Below, in pieces: positions 3 to 18,527 of a stretch of 64,000 nucleotides of DNA; the stretch's first letter is position 1, and each line of letters begins with the position of its first letter. Location of the stretch: positions 1 through 64,000 of the IMG/VR virus record IMGVR_UViG_3300027747_001390; one strand, written 5' to 3'. The notes below the pieces were generated by a model. The model was not told the origin of the DNA and ran no database searches. It worked only from the letters and a program-made list of their open reading frames with translations. The position numbers and the translations under genes are program-made. The stretch comes from a virus.

Positions 3-1517
3 GAGAGTGCCGGTAAGCTTGCCGCCTCTGTTACCAAAGCCGCCAAGCAGATGGGCGTAGACATGGCGATCGTCCAGATTGATGGCTCCACAGACGGCTC
101 GCACGTCGGTGCTTTTCAGGACGCTGGCTACTCGTACTCGCTCAGTAACGACGCCACTCAAGTCACGCTGACTAAGGACATCCCCAAGTCCAGTTCTCGC
201 CGCTCCTACGAAGAACTGATGAGGTTCTACGAGAGCCGTGGCTTCTGCCCCACAGGTCAAGGCAACGGCATCGACAACTCGTGCGGCGCGAAGGTGATGA
301 TGGCTCCAGACAGGGACGGTGGCGGCGGAAAAGCTCTCGACGCCAACGACCCGGTCGCCGTCAAGGCGTTCATGGAGAAGATGGCACGCGAGACTGGCAT
401 GGACATCACTGGGAGGCCGGTTGCACAAAAAAGCGTGAACACCGCAGTCGGAGGAAAAGCCGCAACTGCCCCGTCAGATGCACCTAAGTCTCTGGAGCAG
501 CAAAGGCTTGAGGCTGCTGGCTTATGGGATGACAAGATCGATCCTGCCGTTAATGCTCCGTATGACGACATGGGCCACGGCGGTTACGTGCCTGACCTTC
601 AAAGAGAAGTGACAATTCCGGGCACGAATCAGAAAACAAAGATCAACGTGGACGACCCTGATCAAGTCAAGGAATACATAACGCTGGCTGCGAAGACTGC
701 TGGTCAGACCACGGATGAGTTTATGAAAAGCCAGCGTTTCGGCGGGACGCTCATGAAGCTAACGCCTCACGATAAGGTCAAGCTGTTCGGAGGAGCGAAC
801 CATCAATACGCTCACAAGGGTAGCAGGAGCGGCGGATGGGGGAATAAAGAATACGACGAAGCCGCAAAAAGAATTGGATCAACTCTTCGTGCGGCAGGAG
901 TTGACCCGCAGAAATTATCTCACGCCGTGCGAGAGTACGCGAAGGCCAACAAGCTTGACCCAAAGAACGAGATGTACTCAGGGCTGAGGACTTACCAGCG
1001 AGACCCGCGAGAGTTTATGCAGTGGGCGTATAAGCGACTTGACCATTATGGTCAGGGCTATAGGTCTAACTACGAAGAACTGATGAAGTTCTTCGAGAGC
1101 CGTGGCTTCTGCCCTACGGGAGAGGACGGCGGCGTCGACAACTCGTGCGGCGGCGGCAAGTACATGGAGTGGAGCAAGGGCAAGGACAAGGAAGCTCAAG
1201 ACTTCATCGACAAGGCTCGCCAAGATCAACTCTCGAAGGGCGGCAAGGACGGAGGCAAGTCTGACGAGGGCGGTGGCGTCCAGACGTGGAGCAAGGGCGA
1301 TCACTTCCCGTGGACTGTCAAGCAAGTCGGCGACAAGGACGGCCACGTTCAGGGTCAGCACCCGGACGGCAGCAAGACCGAGAAGTACCCGTTCAAGGAC
1401 GGCAAGACGTCCGACGCTCTGAAGAAAGTCTCTGACGAGATCAAGCGTCGCAAAGACTCACGTGCCGATCGGGTTGTCGCTGACACTCTCAAGTTCCTCA
1501 TGGATCGACGTGCATGA
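3..1517 (+). CDS. Head-region modular protein, 5'-truncated; two C-x11-C tag repeats; possibly the C-terminal extension of the prohead protease or a minor head protein
   Basis: Frame is open from nt 3, upstream of the called ATG at 51. YEELMxFxESRGFCPTGxxxG(I/V)DNSCG occurs twice. Lies upstream of the MCP. Confidence 0.75.
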   Translation, partial: ESAGKLAASVTKAAKQMGVDMAIVQIDGSTDGSHVGAFQDAGYSYSLSNDATQVTLTKDIPKSSSRRSYEELMRFYESRGFCPTGQGNGIDNSCGAKVMMAPDRDGGGGKALDANDPVAVKAFMEKMARETGMDITGRPVAQKSVNTAVGGKAATAPSDAPKSLEQQRLEAAGLWDDKIDPAVNAPYDDMGHGGYVPDLQREVTIPGTNQKTKINVDDPDQVKEYITLAAKTAGQTTDEFMKSQRFGGTLMKLTPHDKVKLFGGANHQYAHKGSRSGGWGNKEYDEAAKRIGSTLRAAGVDPQKLSHAVREYAKANKLDPKNEMYSGLRTYQRDPREFMQWAYKRLDHYGQGYRSNYEELMKFFESRGFCPTGEDGGVDNSCGGGKYMEWSKGKDKEAQDFIDKARQDQLSKGGKDGGKSDEGGGVQTWSKGDHFPWTVKQVGDKDGHVQGQHPDGSKTEKYPFKDGKTSDALKKVSDEIKRRKDSRADRVVADTLKFLMDRRA

Positions 1518-4500
1518 ACGCGGCACGTTACGCGTCGCTGATTGCGTTTGCTCAGGCTCGCGGATTCTGTCCGACTGGTCTCGGCAACGGCATCGACAAC
1601 TCTTGCGGCGCGAAAGTAATGTCCGCGCCGGATGGGGGCGGTGGCGGTGGCAGCACAATTGGTGGGTCTGCGGCGAGCTACGCGATCGTTTCCGACGCGA
1701 TAACTCAGTCGATTCCAGAAGCGGACCGCAACGCCGTTAGGCTTGGATCACAGAGGGCGATATTCGGACGCGATCAGCTTGAGAATGGCATTCCATTCAA
1801 ATCGACAACCAAGGTTGCTGACCTTCAGATCAGGCGTCCCGAGGAGTTGCTTGAACGTGCTAAGTCTTACGGAATTAAGAATCCGTCAGACATTGCCGTG
1901 ATTGGCTGCGGCACTATCCCTGACTCGAAGGTTGTGATGGTGCCTCGCATTGGCGGCATAGAAGTGAAAAGCACTATTCCTTTCGGAGACGATCCTCTTT
2001 CTACGGCTACTGTCGAAGCTGGCTTCAACGGCGAGCCTGACTCGGCTGTCAAGTACGGATACTTCCAACTGACTTCCCAAGCAAGAGAGAAGATTAACAG
2101 CGGAAGCATCAGCTTGAATCTTGTTTCGGCGACTATCATGTCAGCCATGTCTCAATCGCTTGAGGCAGCAGAGAAGAACGGATTGTCCAAGGCTGTCACG
2201 AACGCCGCCGGAAACGGCATCGGTCGTTTTGTGAGTGGACCAAGCGATGCCTTGCAGGGATATCGCCTGTGGCCGAAATTCGGGTTTGATGCCGACGTTG
2301 GCTCGATGATCACGGAGCGTTTCCTGAACGCCGTGAACGAATCGACAGGAAAGAAATTCAGCGACGGACTACCCCCGGCGGCGAAAGTACATCTTGGTCG
2401 TCATGGAACTCTCCGCGTACAGCACATCATCGAGACAAAGCAGGGCGAGGAGTGGTGGAATAAGAACGGCTCTGGCACCGTGATGACTCTCGACTTCTCG
2501 GACAAGTCGAGCCTCGGCTATCGGCGTTACACAGAGATGCTGTCGTGGGGAAAGAAGATGGCGGCGAGACTTGATAGGCAAGGACGGTCTGCCTTCGAGT
2601 TCTGGCTTTGGGCTTCGGAAGAGACTGGAATGCCGGAGTTCCGTAACTGCGAGATCGCGTTGTTCCCCGAGCAACGCGTCTTCTGTGCAACCGGAGTCGG
2701 CGGAGGGGTGAAGAACGACTGCGGCCCCGGCCAGACCGAGAGGTCATTCCCTGAAGGCTCGCAGAACCTACGAGACGCCGTCGATTCAGTATCCCCCGAT
2801 CCGGAGAAAGTCTGGGATCGCTCGAAGGGCTTGGCTGAGACTCCTGCACCTAAGCAGATGGACGACATCGCCAACGAGCAGACCAGCCACTCAGGTGCCC
2901 CTCTCACGCCAGAGGCAGAGGCGTCATACGGATCACTCGTCGATGAGATCGGCAGGCAGTACGAGGCACTCACTGCCGCCGGGCTGAAGGCCAGAGCGTG
3001 GCGTGGAGAGGGCGAGCCATACGGCGATCCGCCGGGCAGCACGAAACCCAACTCGGACAAGATGCGTCAAGAGGTCGCCAAGACTGGCGAGTTCTCTTTC
3101 TTCATGACCGACAAGGGGTTCGGCACGGGCGATGCTACGCCCAACCACCCGATGCTTCGCGAGACGAAGTACAAGACTGCCGACGGCGAGCCGATGATCG
3201 CCAACGACTTGTTCCGGGTCGTCCACGACATGGTCGCACACGTGCGAGGCGGCTACTCGTTCTCTACGAATGGCGAGTACAACGGAATGCTGACGCACGC
3301 GTCTACACTTCCAGAAGCGGCGTGGCCTGCCCTGTTCGCTGAGACGTTCGGCCAGAACGCCGTCTACGAGAAGACGAAGAACTACGCGCCGCAGAACGCC
3401 TACGCCTCGAAGGTCGGCCCAGAGATCATCCGCAGCGAACTGAAGAAGCAGTCTAAGAGCAGTCGAGCAGCAAAGGCTGAAAGTGACGAGCCGCTTGGCT
3501 ACCAGCACATCAAGTCGAGGCCTTGGCTACTCAAGTCGCTTGTCGAGAAGCGAGGCTTCTGTGCAAACGGCCCCGGCGGCGGCGTAACGAACACGTGCGG
3601 AAAGGGCGTTGGCATAAACGACTCTGATCAAGACTTTACCGGCCAGATTCTCTCTGGCGAGAAGACTATCGAGACTCGCCCGTCGAACTCGCTCAAGTCA
3701 TTCATCGGCAAGACAGTTGGAATCGTTCGCACTGGCAAGGGCAAGGCCACGCTCGTCGGCGTGATGAAAATTGGTGAGCCGAAGTTCTACAAGACGCAGG
3801 AGGAGTTCGACGCCGACTTCGACAAGCACAGGGTTGGAAAAGACTCTAAGCACTACATCGGCCCGGAAGGAAAGTACGGATACCCTCTGTCTGAGGTTAA
3901 GCCTACCGTCCCATTGCCGCTCGACACAAAGCATTACGTTGCGAGAGTTATTCCAACGTCGGTTCAGTTGCGAGAGCTTGCGATCTGGTTCGACCTTAGC
4001 GGCGTCGAGATTCGCGGCGACGCTCCCGCCCCAAAGAAGGACAAGATCAAAGGCAGCGACGTCAACGACGAAGGCTCCGCTAAGAACAAGTCTGGCGACA
4101 TCTCGCTGAACGAGAGCATCGTCGCCTCGCTGAAGTCGAAGGCCGAAGAACACAACGCTGCGATGCGAAAGGCCAAGAAGCCGTCGTGGACTCACGTCAG
4201 CCTGCCCGCACTGAAGGCAGTCTATCGTCGAGGTGCTGGTGCTTTCTCGACGAGCCATCGTCCGGGCATGACTCGCGACCGATGGGCATTGGCGAGGGTA
4301 AATGCGTTCCTAACCTTGGCCCGGAGAGGCAGGCCAGAGAACGCGAAGTACACGACCGACAACGACCTTCTCCACTCCAGTCATCCGAAGCACAGCACGC
4401 AGGCTCGTGCCTTTTGCCCTAGAGGCGAAGGCAACGGTATCGACAACTCGTGCGGCGCGAAGACTATGTCCGCGCCGGATAAAGATGGCGGCGGCGGTGC

Positions 4501-6118
4501 CATGCCCAGCAAGGTTTCTCCGGGCTCATCGCAGTGGGGTGAGAACGAAAAAGAAATCGGACGCGGAGAAGACACGGTCTTCTTCCGTCCGGAAGAGCCT
4601 ATGTTCGACGGTGCTGATCGGCTTGGGGTGATCACGATCAAAGACCCAGACGCCACCAAAGCTGCGCTCAAGTCTCTTGGCATGTCCGTTGCTGACGCAA
4701 TCGCCGCCTCTGGCGTGTGCCTAGACTCCATAGGGCGTCTTGGCATTTCGCCCCCCCGCGTGACGATCTCGCCAAACTACGGCAACGAGTCTGATCCGCT
4801 TGGAACAAGGGTTGCCCTGTTCCATGTTTGGTGGAGTTCTGCTGCGACTCAGGGAGATGACAACGACGATTCTCCGCCGTCGGTCGTGGGCGGCGAGAGG
4901 TCTTTCTACAGATCGACAGACGGAAGTGGCTTCTCGATCGTAGCTCAAACATTTCATATCAACTTGCGATACCGAGGAAAGGGAATCGCACTTGAGATGA
5001 TGGAGAACATGATCAACTCTGGCGCAACAGAGATCGTCATGAGGGAGGCTTCAAGGGATGACGCCGGAGGAAACTCAAGGTACGCTCTGACCGGATATTC
5101 CGAGTGGCCCAAGTACGGATACGACTGCCCGCGATCGGAGTTGCGGAGGGCAGCGCAGAGGCGCGGCCGAGAGGTTCCGCCCGAGTACAGTCGCGCTCGC
5201 AGTCTCCTTGACGTCTACGCGACGCCGGGAGGCCGCGAGTGGTGGAAGGAGTCTGGAGACTCTGTGCCGCTTCGCTTTGACTGCACCCCCGGCAGCAGAA
5301 GCATGCAAGTCTTCGATGCGTACCGCACCGCTGCGAGAGCGAAGCACGATCGTCGCAGCCAGATCGAAGCCCGCCCGGCTGAGGACGCTTCGGACTGCGA
5401 CTTCGATCCGGTGCTTGACAAAGTGTGGGATGAGATCGAGAAGGCTGGGAAGTTGCCGGGCAAAGTGGCGACCGAGTCCCGCTCCGCCGACTGCGGTCGC
5501 GAAGACGACGGCCGCTTCGCCTCCGGCAACAAGTGCGGCGGCTCTGTCGATATGCCGAAGGAAGACCCTCGTGGCAGGATGCGGTACGACAACGGTGTGC
5601 AGACAGACGCAGCCCGGAAGCTCTACCAGATGGGATCGTCAGAGAAGAGACTCAAGAGTCTCGTTGACGTGATGGGCGGCGATCCGAAAAGCACGCGAGT
5701 CGACATCAACCCGCCAAGCCTGAACATCTCCGTCGCCGACAAGGATGGAAATAAACTATTCCACGTCGATCTTGAGAACGGTAGAGCGAGGCTCTACCCC
5801 GCCAAAGACTTGACCCCAGCCGAGGCTGCAAAGATCAAGGAAGCGGCTGGTGCAGCGTTTGGCGGACGTCAGTCTGACACTACAATTAAGGTCTTCGGCA
5901 AGGCTGAAGACATGAAGAAGTGGGAAACTGAGAACGCTGCCAAACTCCAGAAGTCGGAAGACAAGTACAAGTTCTCGACGCTTCTCCCGCCGCACCAGAG
6001 GCCGAAGAAATGGGAGCGGTCGATCGACGCCCGCCACGCCAGCCTCCTCGCCTTCGCCGAGTCTCGCGACTGCGGGCAAGAGAAGGACGGCAAGTTCTCG
6101 AAGGGCAACACGTGCGCG
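240..6118 (+). repeat. Eight dispersed coding repeats of the Cys-pair tag (near 240, 1104, 1562, 2678, 3554, 4409, 5492, 6071)
   Basis: FC(P/A)xGxxxG(I/V)xNxCG six times and DCGxExDG(R/K)FxxGNxC twice, each preceded by (E/Q)xR. Confidence 0.9.
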
Positions 6119-6778
6119 GGTGGCATCGCTGCCGACGCCGCAAAAGGGGCTGCGACCGGGGCTGTGTTCGGTGCCGTCTCTGGCCTTGCTAAGACGTTCC
6201 TTCCACAAGGTGCCGCGTCAGGGGCAGCGGCTGGTGCTGTCGCCGGTGCAGTCAAGGGAATCTACGACAACCAAATGCGTCCGACTCGTGTCTCTGCTCG
6301 AATCGAGAGAGTTGGCATGACAGACAAGAGCGTCGCTGCCCTCGTGAAAGGCCTCGGAGGCACGAGCAAGTCTCTTGCTTCAACCAACGGACGATCCGGC
6401 CTTACTCTGACGATCCGGGCGAAGGGCGGAAAAGTCTCGCACGTCGTGGACGTCACCGACAAGAAGGTCTTGATCTATCCAGTTTCCGGTCGCAAAGAGA
6501 TGACCGACGACCAGATCGCGAAGATCAAAACAATCGCGTCAGAGAACGCTCCGAAAGAGACGACCGTCGTCGTGAAAACTAACTCACTCAGCTACGCGTC
6601 TCGGCTTGCCAAAAAGGGCTTCGCCGTTGCTGCCAAGGAGGCTGGCGTTTTGACTGCAACCGCCATCGCGTCTGCATACGCACCGGCTGTTCCAGACTTT
6701 GTTCTGGGAGTCACAGACCTCGTTTTAGATACGCATTTCACTGACTCTTTCTATAGGAAGCCAGATGCAAAGCGGTGA
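1514..6778 (+). CDS. 1754-aa polyvalent head-region protein: six Cys-pair tags separating two GNAT-like, HDxxxH, ASCH-like, DUF5824-like and glycine-zipper modules
   Basis: Long ORF coupled to the previous gene by an ATGA overlap; tags and domain motifs read from the translation. Confidence 0.8.
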   Translation: MNAARYASLIAFAQARGFCPTGLGNGIDNSCGAKVMSAPDGGGGGGSTIGGSAASYAIVSDAITQSIPEADRNAVRLGSQRAIFGRDQLENGIPFKSTTKVADLQIRRPEELLERAKSYGIKNPSDIAVIGCGTIPDSKVVMVPRIGGIEVKSTIPFGDDPLSTATVEAGFNGEPDSAVKYGYFQLTSQAREKINSGSISLNLVSATIMSAMSQSLEAAEKNGLSKAVTNAAGNGIGRFVSGPSDALQGYRLWPKFGFDADVGSMITERFLNAVNESTGKKFSDGLPPAAKVHLGRHGTLRVQHIIETKQGEEWWNKNGSGTVMTLDFSDKSSLGYRRYTEMLSWGKKMAARLDRQGRSAFEFWLWASEETGMPEFRNCEIALFPEQRVFCATGVGGGVKNDCGPGQTERSFPEGSQNLRDAVDSVSPDPEKVWDRSKGLAETPAPKQMDDIANEQTSHSGAPLTPEAEASYGSLVDEIGRQYEALTAAGLKARAWRGEGEPYGDPPGSTKPNSDKMRQEVAKTGEFSFFMTDKGFGTGDATPNHPMLRETKYKTADGEPMIANDLFRVVHDMVAHVRGGYSFSTNGEYNGMLTHASTLPEAAWPALFAETFGQNAVYEKTKNYAPQNAYASKVGPEIIRSELKKQSKSSRAAKAESDEPLGYQHIKSRPWLLKSLVEKRGFCANGPGGGVTNTCGKGVGINDSDQDFTGQILSGEKTIETRPSNSLKSFIGKTVGIVRTGKGKATLVGVMKIGEPKFYKTQEEFDADFDKHRVGKDSKHYIGPEGKYGYPLSEVKPTVPLPLDTKHYVARVIPTSVQLRELAIWFDLSGVEIRGDAPAPKKDKIKGSDVNDEGSAKNKSGDISLNESIVASLKSKAEEHNAAMRKAKKPSWTHVSLPALKAVYRRGAGAFSTSHRPGMTRDRWALARVNAFLTLARRGRPENAKYTTDNDLLHSSHPKHSTQARAFCPRGEGNGIDNSCGAKTMSAPDKDGGGGAMPSKVSPGSSQWGENEKEIGRGEDTVFFRPEEPMFDGADRLGVITIKDPDATKAALKSLGMSVADAIAASGVCLDSIGRLGISPPRVTISPNYGNESDPLGTRVALFHVWWSSAATQGDDNDDSPPSVVGGERSFYRSTDGSGFSIVAQTFHINLRYRGKGIALEMMENMINSGATEIVMREASRDDAGGNSRYALTGYSEWPKYGYDCPRSELRRAAQRRGREVPPEYSRARSLLDVYATPGGREWWKESGDSVPLRFDCTPGSRSMQVFDAYRTAARAKHDRRSQIEARPAEDASDCDFDPVLDKVWDEIEKAGKLPGKVATESRSADCGREDDGRFASGNKCGGSVDMPKEDPRGRMRYDNGVQTDAARKLYQMGSSEKRLKSLVDVMGGDPKSTRVDINPPSLNISVADKDGNKLFHVDLENGRARLYPAKDLTPAEAAKIKEAAGAAFGGRQSDTTIKVFGKAEDMKKWETENAAKLQKSEDKYKFSTLLPPHQRPKKWERSIDARHASLLAFAESRDCGQEKDGKFSKGNTCAGGIAADAAKGAATGAVFGAVSGLAKTFLPQGAASGAAAGAVAGAVKGIYDNQMRPTRVSARIERVGMTDKSVAALVKGLGGTSKSLASTNGRSGLTLTIRAKGGKVSHVVDVTDKKVLIYPVSGRKEMTDDQIAKIKTIASENAPKETTVVVKTNSLSYASRLAKKGFAVAAKEAGVLTATAIASAYAPAVPDFVLGVTDLVLDTHFTDSFYRKPDAKR

Positions 6779-6950
6779 TAAGTGCCCGTGCAGTGGATGC
6801 AGCGGACGGATGATCACTCGAAGCAGTCGCCAAAGCGGCGATCTTCAGGTGAGGTATCTCCGCTGCCAAGTCTGCGGTCGTCAGGACCGCTGTATCGTCT
6901 CTGCAAACGACGTGCGATCCATTTGCTGGCGTCGCACCAGTCCAAAATAG
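6765..6950 (+). CDS. Ogr/Delta-like zinc-finger protein, putative late transcription activator
   Basis: CPCSGC...RSSR...VRYLRCQVCG, 61 aa, directly before the MCP. Confidence 0.6.
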   Translation: MQSGDKCPCSGCSGRMITRSSRQSGDLQVRYLRCQVCGRQDRCIVSANDVRSICWRRTSPK

Positions 6951-7075: not shown

Positions 7076-8539
7076 ATGGAAGCCTCGGCCAAAGTCAAGA
7101 AGCTCCTCGACGAACTCGCCGCCGTCCTCGCAGAGATGGGCGCGGTTCAGGAGACCGACACCGAGACCGCTGACCAGAACGAGGACATGGCCGAGCAGAA
7201 CGGTATGCCACCCGCCGCCGCTGACGACGAAGCGGCAGACCAAGTCGAGGACACTCAGGAGGTCGAAGGCGAGAAGCAGAAGAAACTTCGCTGCCTGTGC
7301 GAGCGTGCTGAGAAGCTCCGCGACCAGATCACCTTCTACGAGAACGTCGCTGCCAAGGAGCTTGAACTCCGAGCGGTTCTCGACAAGTCCACCCCCGCCA
7401 AGATCGAAACTCGCAACTCCAAGGAGAGTACAGTGAAGATTTCCCCTATCGCCCTTGCGGGCGCAGGCCGACTCAAGAATTTCAAGGGTCCGAATGCCGA
7501 AGAGCGGGCCTACCGCGCTGGTCAATTCTTCCGGGCCACGCTCCTGAAGGACACCGAGGCTCAGCGGTGGTGCAACGACCACGGCGTGACCGAGTCGCGT
7601 GCCCTCAACGAAGGCGTCAACGCTCAGGGCGGCATCTTCGTCAACGAGGAAATCCTCAACGAGATCATCGTCCTCGTCGAAGAGTTCGGTGCGTTCCCGG
7701 CCAATGCCCGCAACCTCCAGATGAAGTCTGACACCCTCATCGTGCCTCGCAGGGTTGGAGGTCTCAAAGCGTATTTTGTCGGAGAAAATACGAGCGTGAG
7801 CGAATCCGACGCCAGTTGGGACCGTGTCCAGCTTGTCGCCAAGAAGGCTGCGGTTGCGAGTCGCATCTCTTCGGAGATTTTGGAAGACTCGTCCGTCCTG
7901 AACCTCGCCGATTATCTGACGGGTGAAGTGTCGAGGGCCATCGCGGAACTCATCGACGTGTGTTCGTTCGTGGGGACTGGCAGCGGCGACCACGGCGGTA
8001 TCGTCGGTGTGGTCAACAAGATCACCGACGGCACTCATGCCGCTGGCGTGATCACGGCTGGCAGCGGCGAGACCGGGGCGCAGTCGCTGACCCTGAACTC
8101 GCTGATCGCTGCGGCTGGTCGTCTCCCGCTGTACGCGAGGGCCAACGCCAAGTGGTACGTGAACCCCGCCGTCTTCGCGGCCAGCGTTCAGCGTCTGGGT
8201 CTCGTCAACAACGTCGGCATCGCTGGCGGCAACACGCCCGCGACCCTGTCGGCGGGAACCGAGATGCGACTTCTCGGATATCCAATTGTTTTCGTGCATA
8301 CACTTTCCAACAACGTGTCGGCTGACCCCGGCGTCGTGAAGTTCCTCTTCGGCGACCTGTCGCTGAGTTCCTTCTACGCGACCCGTCGCGGCCTGACCAT
8401 CAAGCAGTCCACCGAGCGTTATGCGGAACTCGATCAGACGCTGCTCGTCAGCACGATGCGGTTCGACGCGGTCACCCACGACTGCGGTGACGCGAACCGT
8501 GCCGGTCCGATCGTTGCTCTCAAGACTGCGGCCTCCTGA
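7076..8539 (+). CDS. Major capsid protein, HK97 family, with N-terminal scaffold/delta region
   Basis: Acidic coiled-coil N-terminus; ESR|ALNEG...GGIFV; AYFVGE; LLGYPIV; FGDLS; RFD. Confidence 0.92.
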   Translation: MEASAKVKKLLDELAAVLAEMGAVQETDTETADQNEDMAEQNGMPPAAADDEAADQVEDTQEVEGEKQKKLRCLCERAEKLRDQITFYENVAAKELELRAVLDKSTPAKIETRNSKESTVKISPIALAGAGRLKNFKGPNAEERAYRAGQFFRATLLKDTEAQRWCNDHGVTESRALNEGVNAQGGIFVNEEILNEIIVLVEEFGAFPANARNLQMKSDTLIVPRRVGGLKAYFVGENTSVSESDASWDRVQLVAKKAAVASRISSEILEDSSVLNLADYLTGEVSRAIAELIDVCSFVGTGSGDHGGIVGVVNKITDGTHAAGVITAGSGETGAQSLTLNSLIAAAGRLPLYARANAKWYVNPAVFAASVQRLGLVNNVGIAGGNTPATLSAGTEMRLLGYPIVFVHTLSNNVSADPGVVKFLFGDLSLSSFYATRRGLTIKQSTERYAELDQTLLVSTMRFDAVTHDCGDANRAGPIVALKTAAS

Positions 8540-13262: not shown

Positions 13263-16200
13263 ATGGCAACAATCGGAAGCATTGTCGCCCAGTTCACCGC
13301 CGATACAGGTGGACTACAGAAAGGCGTCGAGGATGCCGTCAGCTACTTTCAAGGTCTTCGCGATCAGATCGCTGGAGCGACTGAAGACATCAAGCAGTTC
13401 AACGCTGTTCTCTCGGCGCAGATTGCTGTAGCGAACGCGGAACTGAACAAGCTGGACGTCGAGAAGTCGATTCGCATCGATGCTGATGTGAGCGACCTGA
13501 AGACGTCGATCGAGGAGGTTGACAAGCTCGCCTCAGTTTCTTTCGACGCAGACACGTCTTCCGTATCGTCCGCCGTCGAAGAGATATCCAAAGAGAAGCC
13601 AGCCGAAATCGAGGTGAAGGCCGACACCACAAACCTCTCTACGGCCACTGGCGTTATCAAGCAGTTTGCAAGCACGTCAAAAGAACTTTTCTCTCAGTCT
13701 GGAGAAGAAGTCGTAGAGGGAGCGGAGAAGTTTGACACGTTTCGCACCTCCGCCGCAGTAATGGCGAGCGGAGTGACGAAGGCCTACTCCGATATAAAAA
13801 ATGCGTCGAACCAGACTGCCAACGCAATAAATGCAATCGGTGTTGCCGCTAGTGCGATATCGAAGACTGGTCAGGATGGGTTCAAGGGCTTCTCAAGCGC
13901 AGTCGAAGCGACAGTCATCGCCACCGGAAGGGCTTACGACGCGACAGAGACTCTCGCCAAGACTTACAAGGAATCTCTTCCCGCCGCAGCGTCGGCCTCG
14001 ATTGCTGGCTTTAGGGCGTTTGTTGGTCAGCTTGGCGGCATAGACACACTCGGTCGCGCCGCAGGCGGCAGCGCGGCAGCGACCGCCATAACTGTAGGGA
14101 GCCTCGGCGGCGCGTTTGCGTCAGCGGCAGCATCTGTTGGCACATACGCAGCCGTGATCACGGCTGCGAAGGTGGCTTCTGCGGGGATGAGCGAGGAGGC
14201 TCAGGCCTATGTTCAGAGAGGTGCTGAATACGCGGGAGCATTTGCCGGTGTTGCCGCAGGCGCGGCTGCGACAACGTCGGCATACAATCTCGTGGCTGGC
14301 GCGTTGTATAAGTCTTCGACGGCCACACAGTTCTTTCAGAACGTGCTTCAGGGGCTGGGCGGCGGCATCACGACAGCCGTTGCTAGCTCGGCCAGCTTGG
14401 TTAAAAGTCTGACGCAAATCAATACCGTCATGAGTCTGGTTTCCTCGGCTGCGAACGAGAAAACAACCGGCTTGGGCTTTGTGTCACTCGCGGCTCGCGT
14501 TGCCGTAACATCTGTAATGTTTGGCGCGCTCGCCGGAGGCGTGCGTGCCTATGCGGCTGGCACGGCAGTGGCTGCGGGGGTGACTGGCGGAGCGTCTGCG
14601 GCGATCACCGGCCTAGCTGCCACGTTCCCTCTTGCTGCCGTCGGTGCTATGGCAGCAGCGGTAGCGACAGGGAAGTTCTTCCACGCACTTGAGCATCTCA
14701 GTGTTGCCACTCAGTCGCTCGATCAGATGGCTGAACGGTTCGGCACGACCACTCAGGAGATGGAGAAGCTAAAGCTCGCCGCCGACAACACTCAGGTGAG
14801 CATGAGAATGCTGGGCAAGGCACAGCAGTCTTTCTATCAGAACCTGAGCAAGATTAAATCAGGCCAGTTCAACACAGAGAGCGTTCGCGAAGCCAAGATT
14901 GCTTTCGATAAGCTTGGCATCTCAACAGAAGAACTCAAAAACAAAAGACCTGACGAAGCCTTCCGCCTAGCGGCAGCAGAACTGTCTAAGGTCGAAGACG
15001 CCGCCAAGCGAACGTCCATCGCGATGGACTTGTTTGGGCGAACTGGCGGAATGATCCTTCCAGCCTTGAAAGAGCTTGAAGAAATCGATCAGGACTTCGC
15101 GAGACTTGGCGGTGCCTTGAATTCTCTTGATACGAAGAGGCTCCTTGACGTCGAGGCTTCGTTCGACAGGCTTTCAGCGTCTGGGAAAAGCCTTGGCAGA
15201 ACTCTCCTCATTCCGTTCGTCGAGCTTCAGAGAGCGTTCAACAATTTTTCCGCAGAGGTGAAGGGCGGCTTGTCCACTGCGCTGGCACCGCTTGCGAGTA
15301 TGCTCGCAGACGTCAGCAAGCCGCTTTCGATCATCATTGAGATGGTCGGAAGAGTGATCGGCATCTTCCTGAGAATGGTTGCGGTGATTTTTCAGATTGC
15401 CGCCTCCTTGCAAGCGTTCGCCGCCTTTGCTGCCATATTTGAAGGCATTCGGTACGGCTTCGACATGATGATGAAGCCGATTGAGGATTTTATTGCCGGT
15501 GCTGCGGAGCTTGCGTCTGCATTTGCTGCTGCAATGAGGCCAGCCGCAGAGTACACGGGCATCCTTAGTCTTTTCGGAGTCGGCCTTCGGGCAATTGGAA
15601 CCGCTGTAGGCGTCGTCTTGGCTTTTATAGGGCAGCTTGCGATTTACGTAGGAGTAGGAGCCGCTGCGTGGGGGATTTACACGGTCGCTATCTCGCTCGC
15701 CAGCGCGACGTCTCTGCTCGCTGCCGCTAACTTCGCACTAGCATGGGCTGCGGCACTCGGACCAATTGCCGTCGCGGCCCTCGCGCTTGCGGCAATCGGC
15801 GGCGTATTAACTGTCTTGGTCAAGGGACTGGTTGAAGCTGGAAAGTGGGTCTACGGACTCGCAAAGTCGTTCATTGGCTTTAAGTCCGCACCTGAGAAAA
15901 TCGACGCCACCCGCGCTTCTGTCGACGAACTTGCCGAGGCTTCGCGCGCGGCCTCTGCGTTCAAGGGCGGTAAGTCTCCTGCGTTTGATGAGGTCAAGAA
16001 GTCAGTTACTGAAGCAAAAGAAGAGATCAACTCGCTGACGATCGAGTCGGCGAGGTATGGCTCCGAGGGGTCTGCCGCTGCGAAGGCTGCTCAGGAGGGC
16101 TTCAGCGAGCTTCAGCAAAAGCTTGCCGACGGAAGGATCACGCTCGAAGAGTTTGATGAGCAGACAAAAAAGAACGCCGAAAACCTCCGCGAAAACCTGA

Positions 16201-18527
16201 AGTCATACAAAGACGACAGCCCGGCTATCGCGCTCAAGAAAAACCTCGAACTCTACAAGCAACTCAACGACGCTGCGAAGGCAGCAACGAAGTCCACCAG
16301 AGACATTGGTGCCGGTACGGTGATCGAAGACAAGTTCTTTCCGACTTCCGAAAAGATCAAGACTAAGGCGGCAGAGTATAAGGCCGAGTACATAAAGGCT
16401 CTTGAGGAGATCAAGAAAAAGCAGCAGGAGGGCTTTTTCGCCGACGAGATCAAGCAAAAGAAGGAAAAAAATCAGTCAGACTTCGACAACAATCTGATCT
16501 CGAAAGATCAGTTCGAGACGGTCAAGCTTGAACTTGACTCGACGAACGCTCAAGAGGAAGCATCAATCGCGGCCGAGGAGGTCAAGAGAGAGTTTGATCG
16601 CAATAACAAGATCAACATCGAGCTTGACACTTCGTTTGCAGAAAAGATTCGCAAGGAACTCGAAGACGCTTTCATGAGTCCGGTCGACAAGTTCGAGGAC
16701 GAGCTTGACAAGATCAAAAACAACAAGTCGCTGACCGACACTGAAAAAGCACTCGCAAGGGCGAACCTGACCAAGAAAACAAGAGAAAGCCTCGTCGGCA
16801 AGTCTGCCCAGACTCAGTTTCAGGAACGCACCCGTGACGTTAAGCAGGCTGCTGCGGCTGGCCTGATCAGCACAGGCGAGTTGAACGCGGAACTCAAGAA
16901 GGCCTCTGAAGACTTTGCGTCAGCCGTCGGCGTGACCAAGACCCCGTTCGAGACGTTCTCTTCGTCTCTCAACAACATTGCCAAGCAGTTTGGCTTCGCA
17001 GGCCAGCCTATCGACGTCGTTCGTGAGAAGCTCAAGGGCAATGCCGAGCAACTTGCGATGTTTGATCGGGCGGTCAAGGAGTCTCGCGACAATCTCCTCG
17101 CGTCACTGGGCATCGAGAAGACTCCTCAGCAAGTCTTCGATGAGCAGATCGAGAAGATCGAGGAGGCCGCGAACTCGAAAGACCCAAACAAGAGCATCAC
17201 CAGCGAGCAGGCCGATCAGGCGAGGGCCGCAGCGAGACGCAAGCGAGACGAGGCTCTCGGTGCCGGTGCAGACCTCGCGGGGCAGTTTAGCGATCGTCAG
17301 GCGAAGATCAACGAGGCCTACGGCGGTGGAAAAGACCCGGCAAAACTTGCGGTGGCACAGAACAAGCTTGACATGGACAAGAGGTCTGCCGCCGGTCTTG
17401 ATGCTACGCCCGCTCAGGCACTGAAGGCCGGTATCGATAAGGTAAACGACGCGTTCGGCGTGACAGGAAAGTCGCTGGCTGAGATTCAGTCGTCTCTCTC
17501 GCCAGCAGAGTTCGAGGAGTACCAAGAGGCGATCAAGAAAAACAAGACCGCCGTCGAGGAGTCTCTTGGAATTCAAAAGCCGTCGATCGTGAAACTGCAA
17601 GAGGCTCAAGACAAGCTCTCCGACGCCGTCGGAGAGAACGTCATCTCTCAGCAACAGGCTAGCTCTGCGGCTAGAAAACTTCGAGACGACTTTATGTCTT
17701 CTATTGGCGTCGCCAAGACTCCGTTTGAGGAGTTTTCGGGTGCCATCGACAACATCGCAGAGCAGTTCGACATGGCGGGCCAGCCTCTCGAAACAATTCG
17801 AGACAAGCTGAAGGGCAACGCGGATCAGCTTGCGTTGTTTGACCGTGCCGTAAAGACAGCACGTGACAATCTTCTGTCATCCCTCGGCATCGAGAAGACT
17901 CCTCAGCAAATCTTCGACGAGCAGATGAAGAAAATCGAGGAAGCAGCGAACTCGACTGACCCCAATAAGAAAATCACGAAAGAGCAGGCTGAGCAGGCAA
18001 GGACAAACGCCCTAAGAAAGCGAGATGAGGCTCTCGGTGGCGAGAGTGCGGCAGACTTCGGCGGCAAGATCAAGGAACAACGCGCGAAGATCGAGGAAGC
18101 ATACGGCAAGAACGGCGCGAACGATCCTGAGAAGTTCAAGTCTGCCATGCGGAAGCTCAACGAGTCTATCCCCGGTGCTGAGCAGCAAAGCCCAGTCCAG
18201 AAGTTCCAAGAAGACCTTGAGAAGCTCAAGGCAGCTTTCGGCGAGGGAACTCCCGAGTTCGAGCAGGGCAAGAAGAACCTTCAGGCTCAACTTCAAGATG
18301 AACTGAAGCCCGCCCTCGATGCGACTAAGGAGGACCGCAGAAGCGTCGATGCCTCTGATTCTCGAAGCAAAGGCGGCGTCGACACGTTCTTCCGTATCCT
18401 GCGAGGCAACGACAACCCGTCTCTCAAGGCTCAGCTTGAAGTCGCACGCAACACGAAGTTTCTCGCCGATGCGGCGAGGGATAGGGACGCAGCACCAGTC
18501 ATCGCTCAACTCTCAGCACCACGGTAA
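13263..18527 (+). CDS. Tape measure protein
   Basis: 1754 aa, MATIGSI start, Ala-rich helical with hydrophobic segments, follows the chaperones. Confidence 0.92.
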   Translation: MATIGSIVAQFTADTGGLQKGVEDAVSYFQGLRDQIAGATEDIKQFNAVLSAQIAVANAELNKLDVEKSIRIDADVSDLKTSIEEVDKLASVSFDADTSSVSSAVEEISKEKPAEIEVKADTTNLSTATGVIKQFASTSKELFSQSGEEVVEGAEKFDTFRTSAAVMASGVTKAYSDIKNASNQTANAINAIGVAASAISKTGQDGFKGFSSAVEATVIATGRAYDATETLAKTYKESLPAAASASIAGFRAFVGQLGGIDTLGRAAGGSAAATAITVGSLGGAFASAAASVGTYAAVITAAKVASAGMSEEAQAYVQRGAEYAGAFAGVAAGAAATTSAYNLVAGALYKSSTATQFFQNVLQGLGGGITTAVASSASLVKSLTQINTVMSLVSSAANEKTTGLGFVSLAARVAVTSVMFGALAGGVRAYAAGTAVAAGVTGGASAAITGLAATFPLAAVGAMAAAVATGKFFHALEHLSVATQSLDQMAERFGTTTQEMEKLKLAADNTQVSMRMLGKAQQSFYQNLSKIKSGQFNTESVREAKIAFDKLGISTEELKNKRPDEAFRLAAAELSKVEDAAKRTSIAMDLFGRTGGMILPALKELEEIDQDFARLGGALNSLDTKRLLDVEASFDRLSASGKSLGRTLLIPFVELQRAFNNFSAEVKGGLSTALAPLASMLADVSKPLSIIIEMVGRVIGIFLRMVAVIFQIAASLQAFAAFAAIFEGIRYGFDMMMKPIEDFIAGAAELASAFAAAMRPAAEYTGILSLFGVGLRAIGTAVGVVLAFIGQLAIYVGVGAAAWGIYTVAISLASATSLLAAANFALAWAAALGPIAVAALALAAIGGVLTVLVKGLVEAGKWVYGLAKSFIGFKSAPEKIDATRASVDELAEASRAASAFKGGKSPAFDEVKKSVTEAKEEINSLTIESARYGSEGSAAAKAAQEGFSELQQKLADGRITLEEFDEQTKKNAENLRENLKSYKDDSPAIALKKNLELYKQLNDAAKAATKSTRDIGAGTVIEDKFFPTSEKIKTKAAEYKAEYIKALEEIKKKQQEGFFADEIKQKKEKNQSDFDNNLISKDQFETVKLELDSTNAQEEASIAAEEVKREFDRNNKINIELDTSFAEKIRKELEDAFMSPVDKFEDELDKIKNNKSLTDTEKALARANLTKKTRESLVGKSAQTQFQERTRDVKQAAAAGLISTGELNAELKKASEDFASAVGVTKTPFETFSSSLNNIAKQFGFAGQPIDVVREKLKGNAEQLAMFDRAVKESRDNLLASLGIEKTPQQVFDEQIEKIEEAANSKDPNKSITSEQADQARAAARRKRDEALGAGADLAGQFSDRQAKINEAYGGGKDPAKLAVAQNKLDMDKRSAAGLDATPAQALKAGIDKVNDAFGVTGKSLAEIQSSLSPAEFEEYQEAIKKNKTAVEESLGIQKPSIVKLQEAQDKLSDAVGENVISQQQASSAARKLRDDFMSSIGVAKTPFEEFSGAIDNIAEQFDMAGQPLETIRDKLKGNADQLALFDRAVKTARDNLLSSLGIEKTPQQIFDEQMKKIEEAANSTDPNKKITKEQAEQARTNALRKRDEALGGESAADFGGKIKEQRAKIEEAYGKNGANDPEKFKSAMRKLNESIPGAEQQSPVQKFQEDLEKLKAAFGEGTPEFEQGKKNLQAQLQDELKPALDATKEDRRSVDASDSRSKGGVDTFFRILRGNDNPSLKAQLEVARNTKFLADAARDRDAAPVIAQLSAPR

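Follow-up and report, generated by a model that had tools for sequence, protein, structure and literature searches.

The DNA analysed here, referred to as the window, is the first 64 kb of the 75,626-bp viral record IMGVR_UViG_3300027747_001390, and it opens with two large open reading frames (ORFs) upstream of the gene for the major capsid protein (MCP; 7076–8539). All ORFs, junctions and modules of the window described below are on the + strand. ORF1 (3–1517) is open at the first base of the record and its 5′ part therefore lies off the contig. ORF2 (1514–6778) encodes 1,754 residues, and its ATG overlaps the TGA stop codon of ORF1 as ATGA (1514–1517), as expected from the coupling of the two ORFs that was proposed in an earlier note made from the sequence alone. 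Both ORFs are punctuated by a short peptide with a pair of cysteines, here called the tag, that follows an (E/Q)xR sequence resembling a site in the MCP. Region 3–6778 is most likely the cargo part of a phage head module, with ORF1 and ORF2 built as chains of independently folded modules separated by disordered junctions. In the best reading of the sequence comparisons presented here, the two ORFs probably encode capsid-packaged cargo polyproteins that are cut at these junctions by the phage head protease.

A homologue search with ORF1 retrieved 94 proteins, most of which contain PF04586 and many of which are named HK97 prohead protease. The best match, P0004 (876 residues), is 92% identical to ORF1 over 445 residues, from ORF1 residue 69 to its end. 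P0004 contains a Peptidase_S78 domain (PF04586) at residues 34–188 (116 bits, cut-off 21) and passes TIGR01543 (66 bits, cut-off 59). The protease domain in its AlphaFold model matches T4 gp21 (5JBL; Foldseek probability 1.0, E 2e-4), and an alignment of 65 members of the protease family revealed a nearly invariant His85 and an invariant G131-S132-S133-F134-S135 segment. The S78 domain is not in the truncated ORF1 of the window and is found in the full-length relatives of ORF1. Because the 92%-identical P0004 carries the protease domain, ORF1 is, by homology, the C-terminal part (504 residues) of an HK97-type prohead protease fusion whose protease domain was cut off by the start of the contig. 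The earlier note had treated ORF1 as a separate polyprotein, a view that is replaced by this assignment; its question whether an HK97-type protease domain is encoded to the left of the window is answered by homology, with P0004 placing the S78 domain in the missing 5′ part of ORF1.

Homology between ORF1 and P0004 starts exactly at the helix of junction 1, and upstream of this first helix-tag unit the two sequences diverge. Junction 1 (207–287) consists of the helix YEELMRFY followed by ESR↓G and a Cys loop of the form designated type A, FCPTGQGNGIDNSCG (arrows mark putative cut sites). The module behind it (residues 97–350; 291–1052) had no Pfam, PHROG or NCBIfam match, and the equivalent region of P0004 is partly folded in the AlphaFold model. 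Junction 2 (1071–1151), with the helix YEELMKFF, ESR↓G and a type-A Cys loop, leads into the C-terminal module of the protease fusion (residues 385–504; 1155–1514). This module ends in the helix ADRVVADTLKFLMDRRA and is kept in most of the 65 family members; the equivalent region of P0004 has a predicted local distance difference test (pLDDT) score of ~90. A match of ORF1 to designed 'Cake' propeller proteins involved a short repetitive stretch and was disregarded. Prediction of a complex between the protease domain and a helix-plus-tag unit gave a score of 0.00, which counts neither for nor against binding.

ORF2 is organized as seven modules with junctions between them. It starts with a 16-residue peptide ending in QAR↓G, the candidate propeptide MNAARYASLIAFAQAR, followed by G and a type-A Cys loop (1514–1609). 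The AlphaFold model contains a helix at residues 2–15 with low pLDDT, and the same peptide opens free-standing ORFs in relatives, where it is conserved; of the sequences in front of the tags, this N-terminal 'RYASL(I/L)AFA' peptide of free-standing ORFs is the only one that resembles a targeting propeptide. In the public gene call (P0238), ORF2 has 1,719 residues and is 35 residues shorter, which fits a start at Met36 that omits the N-terminal helix-tag unit. The start at 1514 is favored given the conservation of that unit in relatives. Module 1 (residues 51–370; 1664–2623) was modeled with pLDDT 85–95, and its structure matches (VIA-align, Z 5–6.4) are GNAT acetyltransferases nearly throughout, with weak Foldseek matches that are all GNAT; the model suggests a GNAT-like fold. 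The next junction, EQR↓V with the type-A Cys loop FCATGVGGGVKNDCG (2669–2725), lies within a disordered segment of the model (residues 372–409) and precedes module 2 (residues 410–650; 2741–3463; phrog_3170; pLDDT >90). Module 2 carries a VVHD..AH motif, is strongly conserved with near-invariant columns, and gave a tblastn match to a 'large polyvalent protein' of Planktothrix phage Pag-Yong1. Junction EKR↓G with a type-A Cys loop (3545–3601) leads to module 3 (residues 697–831; 3602–4006), which is a separate unit in four related loci (L025, L027, L031 and L034). Modules 2 and 3 had no PDB sequence match and no ESM Atlas match, and no Pfam family matched module 3; a resemblance of module 3 to ASCH domains was an impression by eye alone and was not confirmed.

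Module 3 ends at a ninth junction, beyond the eight of the earlier note: EIR↓G (residues 832–835; 4007–4018) lacks a tag, continues into a low-complexity linker and occupies an orthologous position in relatives. Downstream are a DUF5824 module (residues 850–960; 4061–4393; PF19141, 35 bits, cut-off 25), the junction QAR↓A with a type-A Cys loop (4400–4456), and module 4 (residues ~1000–1316; 4511–5461), the C-terminal part of which is common to module 1 (BLASTP E 1e-5 over 84 residues). Two junctions with Cys loops of a second form, type B, complete the ORF. ESR↓SAD (5474–5539) leads to module 5 (5546–6013), which is paralogous to part of module 6 (BLASTP E 7e-8), and the helix RHASLLAF with ESR↓D (6032–6118) corresponds to the N terminus of a separate ORF in L008, L013, L014 and L032. 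Module 6 (6119–6775) comprises a glycine-zipper segment, with weak glycine-zipper matches, and a domain, and is kept directly upstream of the MCP gene in all relatives. Glycine-zipper segments resembling membrane helices follow both the first post-protease tag (P0004 residues 232–300) and the last ORF2 tag (6125–6280); these segments may be membrane-active ejection proteins. Other proteins share ORF2 modules, some as fusions to portal proteins and some alongside ART-PolyVal or LPD domains (PF18760 and PF18857 in relatives), and in BFVD the fold of the ORF2 model matches polyvalent, ART-PolyVal, LPD and MuF proteins. None of the ART-PolyVal, LPD or MuF signature domains passed in ORF1 or ORF2 in Pfam and PHROG scans, and no zincin-like metallopeptidase domain was found in ORF1, ORF2 or P0004 in scans that also covered NCBIfam.

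The head modules of 39 related loci were compared with the window. Their order is large terminase subunit (TerL), HK97-type portal, often an extra tagged polyprotein, the protease fusion, one or two tagged polyproteins, a small tagged glycine-zipper protein and the MCP. The small protein in front of the MCP, with a type-B tag and a glycine zipper, is fused onto the end of ORF2 in the window, and the C terminus of the portal protein has extensions of up to 2,683 residues in relatives, with tagged modules of up to ~2,300 residues. No terminase or portal was found among the large ORFs scanned in this genome (the window and 64001–75626). Given also that genomes of relatives reach ~94 kb and that the viral record begins within the protease gene, the record appears to lack ~18 kb at its head-packaging end.

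All eight tags listed in the earlier note are present in the translations, each 0–3 residues after (E/Q)xR. The tag pattern matched the real sequence nine times, once spuriously through an overlap that was not counted, and 2,000 residue shuffles of ORF1 and ORF2 gave a mean of 0.0075 matches, compared to the eight real tags. Tag cysteines make up all four cysteines of ORF1 and 12 of the 18 in ORF2, and a six-frame scan of the 75,626-bp genome identified no tag outside these ORFs. The DNA copies of the tag are merely 61–79% identical, with a longest exact stretch of 18 nt, indicating that conservation is at the protein level and that the repeat is kept by selection on the peptide. Among 162 distinct contexts, the type-A consensus is E-x-R-[GA]-F-C-[PA]-T-G-x-G-G-G-[VI]-D-N-[ST]-C-G followed by a Gly/Ser-rich linker, with the Glu present in 124 and the Arg in 158. 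Type B consists of ExR, 0–2 residues, and then [DN]CG[RQ][DE]x[DG]G[KR]FxxGNxC[GA]. The two types interchange in relatives, where either can follow the protease-proximal helix 'QEFIAERRG' or the N-terminal peptide 'ARYASL(I/L)AFAQSR'. Across 651 distinct tag instances, both cysteines and the aromatic residue before the first cysteine are invariant; the Asn before the second cysteine is Pro in 175 (27%).

AlphaFold models were obtained for P0004 and for ORF2 residues 1–700. All six tags in these models fall in segments with pLDDT <50, and the flanking modules have pLDDT ~90, which argues that the junctions are exposed linear motifs outside the cargo folds; the models agree with the earlier claim that a folded module of its own lies behind each tag. 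The short helices that had been described in front of several tags are predicted at low confidence, and they are not a general feature, because many junctions in relatives lack one. The chemistry of the loop was considered from its composition. Each tag offers two cysteines and no conserved His, short of the four Cys/His ligands of a zinc ribbon or knuckle; a zinc site formed by one tag alone is thereby ruled out on sequence grounds, and a site shared with a second tag or a partner is possible. Intein/Hedgehog-type or Asn-cyclization chemistry was rejected given the Pro in 27% of tags and the 13–15-residue length and predicted disorder of the loop, unlike a folded Hint domain. An RTX-like calcium loop was rejected by inspection, as the spacing is unlike GGxGxD.

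The MCP begins with a 175-residue scaffold (delta) domain that is acidic and coiled, as is typical of a scaffold, and its Phage_capsid match (PF05065, 115.9 bits) covers residues 185–465. Three ExR↓small-residue sites lie in the scaffold (7364–7603): ELR↓A at residues 97–100, EER↓A at 142–145 and ESR↓A at 173–176. The last is ten residues before the Phage_capsid match, in agreement with the earlier note, which placed the same site at the expected scaffold/shell boundary. All three are conserved in 19 relatives (60–94% identity) as ELR↓[AST], EER↓A and [ED][SA]R↓A, and the shell domain contains no ExR↓small site. Three cysteines of the MCP scaffold (7076–7600; RCLC and RWC.DH) are likewise conserved in 19/19 relatives, which is unusual for a capsid scaffold. 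A zinc clasp between the tag and these scaffold cysteines (CLC, RWC.DH) was considered and is not general: a scaffold of the K-type described below has no cysteine, and those of the N-type have none or one.

The residue preceding [GA]F in the retrieved tag-bearing proteins is R in 247 cases, N in 57, K in 18 and L in 8, and is consistent within each protein. In the R-type (the window and its relatives), tags preceded by ExR↓[GA] occur with an S78 protease and an MCP boundary of [ED][SA]R↓A. In the K-type (G006), seven of the eight tags have xK↓[AG] and one has R; the protease is again S78 and the MCP has EQK↓SLIDDATSGG, in which EQK↓S is positionally equivalent to the HK97 capsid cleavage site K103/S104 (PMC10275583). 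The stand-alone S78 protease of G006 (L074:2735–3925) carries a four-Cys cluster, KCGPGSGCGCQAC, in its acidic C-terminal tail. In the N-type (five genomes), tags follow xN↓A, the protease is a weak DUF2213/phrog_760 assignment, and the DUF6260 capsid protein has, without variation in the five genomes, PVxN↓AT precisely where the family match begins. The pre-tag residue thus co-varies with the scaffold/shell boundary residue of the MCP in three lineages (R, K and N). This is the outcome anticipated by the earlier note, which had proposed such co-variation as a test of head-protease processing.

Comparison of one orthologous junction shows that the putative cut site and the tag are separable. 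After module 3, the ExR↓A of L025, L027 and L031 leads into a type-A tag and the EPR↓S of L034 into a type-B tag; in the window, L008 and L014, a plain linker comes directly behind ExR↓G. Homology between the window ORFs and those of relatives begins or ends at junctions, which supports module swapping there. Gene splits in relatives also coincide with junctions. Of the proposal that payloads are shuffled through the repeated tag DNA, the breakpoints at tags hold up; recombination through that DNA would be a hypothetical route, with exact identity limited to 18 nt. In combination, the co-variation with the capsid site, the separability of site and tag, and the breakpoints at junctions argue for a cut made by the head protease. 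The Cys loop itself is not the specificity element of the protease, given that it is identical across different capsid and protease families and dispensable at some junctions.

A profile search with the junction among 1.84 billion proteins identified 575 representative clusters (50% identity) at E ≤ 0.001. Within an evenly spaced sample of 33 tag proteins, the domains were Phage_Mu_F (nine), Phage_portal (four) and Phage_portal_3 (three), together with ART, NUDIX and 2H-phosphoesterase domains, and no secretion-system or cellular context was encountered. The tags are carried by portal, protease and free-standing polyproteins in relatives of the window and by MuF proteins in distant lineages; the co-location of tags with head proteins that the earlier note had asked about therefore extends to portal, MuF, protease and polyvalent proteins. 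N- and K-type lineages have tags on MuF proteins with ART domains, and their tagged cargo includes topoisomerase IB (L073:9599–14593 and L065:4737–6215), pentapeptide-repeat and ART modules. In G006, the topoisomerase IB is preceded by a MuF domain and by a weak intein-like match below the Pfam cut-off, and the adjoining ORF (L073:14563–16173) contains a pentapeptide-repeat module. Among 185,579 prokaryote species (one genome each), the tag pattern occurred in just three small contigs of metagenome-assembled genomes. A related-locus search with P0124 returned no loci, no published description of the tag was found, and the motif string occurs in none of the phage papers searched.

In the proposed mechanism, the polyproteins would enter the procapsid, some of them fused to a structural carrier (portal or protease here, MuF in other lineages) and the free-standing ORFs probably by means of the N-terminal propeptide 'RYASL(I/L)AFA'. 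The HK97-type protease would then cut after Arg, as it is predicted to do in the capsid protein, and the modules would become separate proteins, each beginning with the Cys loop; in the window these would be the GNAT-like, DUF5824, VVHD..AH and glycine-zipper modules. The released modules would remain in the head, be ejected with the DNA and act on the host. The cut is placed after Arg since Arg plus a small residue, usually with Glu at P3, is the sole feature common to all junction classes and the MCP sites, although the exact bond is uncertain. A cut after Glu, as in the T4-like xxE↓ site, is less likely: Arg is present in 158 and Glu in 124 of the 162 contexts, with Glu replaced by Q, H or S.

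Other explanations of the junctions make different demands on the same data. It is possible, if unlikely, that the polyproteins pass through packaging and ejection without being cut, as does the N4 virion RNA polymerase, and that the junction is a docking or structural element contacting the capsid interior, DNA, a metal or other tags. Its Arg would then belong to the docking element, and the likeness to the MCP site would reflect a shared docking surface and not a shared protease. Such a role would suit a motif that far exceeds known head-protease sites in length and conservation and in which both cysteines are invariant in 651 instances, and uncut polyvalent proteins are known (PMC5512222). 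It does not account for pre-loop residues that vary by lineage and track the MCP boundary residue while the loop stays constant, nor for an orthologous junction that retains ExR↓ without the loop. The gene splits at junctions in relatives also imply that the modules function as separate proteins. The conserved loop could instead point to cutting by other means, either thiol self-cutting at the aromatic–Cys bond or the action of a host or other phage protease after ejection, which would activate the effectors in the host. The invariant first cysteine with an aromatic residue always before it would fit this explanation, as would the mature N terminus reported for 9GYI (see below), which by alignment puts the cut at the F↓C bond of the tags; Iyer et al. 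propose post-injection processing for some polyvalent proteins (PMC5512222). We consider this decidedly improbable. Self-cutting needs no lineage-specific residue that tracks the MCP site, the tag-less junction has D and not an aromatic residue at the relevant position, the Pro in 27% of tags excludes a general intein-like Asn cyclization, and Pfam and PHROG scans of ORF1 and ORF2 did not reveal a zincin-like peptidase.

The position of the units between the protease and the MCP, the usual place of scaffold genes, and the conservation of the last glycine-zipper module and of the C-terminal module of the protease fusion in all relatives raise a further explanation, in which the repeated units serve head building as internal scaffold or core components and are degraded and lost like the delta domain. 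This is highly improbable, given that most modules are variable and swapped between close relatives, that they are enzyme-like (a GNAT-like fold here, and ART, topoisomerase IB, NUDIX and pentapeptide-repeat modules in other phages), and that the MCP already has its own scaffold domain. In yet another arrangement, which we regard as quite unlikely, the two-cysteine loop would be a universal, carrier-independent cargo tag that pairs with its counterparts by disulfides or by sharing a metal ion. Loop-initiated proteins would be drawn into the procapsid by tags anchored on portal, protease or MuF proteins, held in the oxidizing virion and freed in the reducing host cytoplasm, and the lineage-specific protease site before the loop would serve solely to unhook each module. 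If so, the loop would be a portable address label that loads proteins into the capsids of unrelated tailed phages.

Several observations weigh against the preferred reading of cargo polyproteins cut by the head protease. The nineteen near-invariant residues of the junction are far above the need of a protease site, so the junction must have a further role outside the cutting explanation. The invariant Cys pair points to such a second function, and possible roles of the loop are retention, cross-linking or pairing, metal binding, a redox switch or an ejection signal. The co-variation draws on three lineages, with K- and N-type sites of just one or two residues, and the N-type protease is the weak assignment noted above. 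In the L-type (G011), there was no PF05065 match; PHROGs gave a terminase and a weak portal match, and neither a capsid protein nor a protease was identified. A tblastn search with the tag unit against 50,697 GenBank phage records, run with a low-complexity filter that may hide matches, found none, leaving no cultured phage in which to check cutting. The closest solved MCP, 9GYI from the satellite EcCIEDL933, aligns its GETRALSTGVPADGG (GETRAL↓STGVPADGG) with TESRALNEGVNAQGG of the window (7589–7630), and its authors give residue 93 as the mature N terminus, after 'RAL' and two residues past the R–A bond. If the cut here were 9GYI-like, it would fall two residues downstream of Arg, which in the tags is the F↓C bond. 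A downstream cut of this type is disfavored by the residues at the would-be position, Asp in the tag-less junction and Thr in N-type MCPs. For the E-T-R-A-L motif before residue 93 of 9GYI, either the protease cuts two residues past Arg or the reported start is approximate.

Phages carry proteins in their capsids and inject them, and the choice and processing of this cargo are understood for few model phages. Against this background, the junction described here, a lineage-specific protease site joined to a universal Cys loop, is one compact element found in at least 575 clusters from uncultured phages, where it marks points of module swapping. If the junctions are indeed cut, they would serve as a rule for parsing giant phage ORFs into separate effectors for injection, and such effectors would include acetyltransferase-like modules, ADP-ribosyltransferases, topoisomerase IB and pentapeptide-repeat proteins. 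Head-protease specificity would then be predictable from sequence alone, and proteins of choice could be loaded into phage heads with the junction as a modular handle.

Two further ORFs of the window were noted. A 61-residue ORF between ORF2 and the MCP gene (6765–6950) has a CPCSGC...CQVCG pattern resembling a small zinc ribbon and might be a candidate late regulator; it had no Pfam match at E ≤ 1e-4. A second ORF of exactly 1,754 residues (13263–18527) is tag-free, has no clear Pfam match and is probably a tape measure or tail protein.

Capsid-packaged, protease-processed effectors are already known as a kind; the three-lineage co-variation, the tag-less orthologous junction and the caveat from 9GYI are new here. 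The MuF polymorphic toxins of temperate phages, reportedly described by Jamet et al. in 2017, are said to have a head-morphogenesis domain that carries variable C-terminal toxin domains. N- and K-type tags on MuF proteins with ART domains resemble these toxins, and the window itself is without a MuF domain. The MuF toxins are reported to carry one C-terminal toxin each, without a repeated junction tag. A broader likeness is to the polyvalent proteins (Iyer, Burroughs, Anand, de Souza and Aravind 2017; PMC5512222), which are giant multidomain proteins with unrelated effector domains, are encoded beside head genes and are predicted to travel with the DNA. ORF2 matches their description of two to fifteen unrelated effector-type domains per polypeptide. 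Polyvalent proteins were proposed to be processed mainly by zincin-like metallopeptidase domains, with assemblin-like peptidases at the C terminus (PMC5512222), whereas here the S78 protease is N-terminal to the cargo and no zincin was found, although zincins are not in all members of the class. The words 'cysteine' and 'Zn-ribbon' are absent from the text of that paper, so the junction tag is not described there.

The HK97 system (gp4 and the gp5 delta domain) has the same protease and MCP families and an MCP-fused scaffold, the removal of which is predicted here, and its K103/S104 site (PMC10275583) is within two residues of ESR↓A in the window. It differs in that gp4 is small and cargo-free, and HK97 is not known to have polyproteins or Cys loops. 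In giant phages (SPN3US gp245 and phiKZ-type ejection proteins), one prohead protease processes numerous proteins of the head and of ejection, all at a short motif that they have in common (PMC7411985, PMC5694885, PMC10052503). Those proteins are encoded by separate genes and carry propeptides, the protease is T4-like, and these phages are not known to have a Cys loop or tagged polyproteins on portal or protease carriers. The closest functional analogue appears to be the capsid-targeting sequence (CTS) of T4, a short N-terminal propeptide of about 10 residues that targets unrelated cargo into the procapsid and is removed by the head protease, at a site like those that it cuts in the capsid proteins, before the cargo is ejected into the host (PMC9026906). 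The CTS of T4 IPIII may resemble the pre-tag helix 'QEFIAERR', a likeness that carries no weight here. The 'RYASLIAFAQAR↓' layout at the N terminus of ORF2 resembles that of the T4 internal proteins and Alt, and the protease fold is common to the P0004 model and gp21 (5JBL). The T4 site is (L/I)xE↓, cut by a protease of the gp21 family (S77), with targeting established through fusion experiments, compared to ExR↓small and S78 here, so the system would work like the T4 one without being a member of it. Unlike the T4 cargo, the proteins here are polyproteins with up to ten or more internal junctions, often on a portal or protease, and the two-cysteine loop at the start of each predicted released module has no counterpart in T4.

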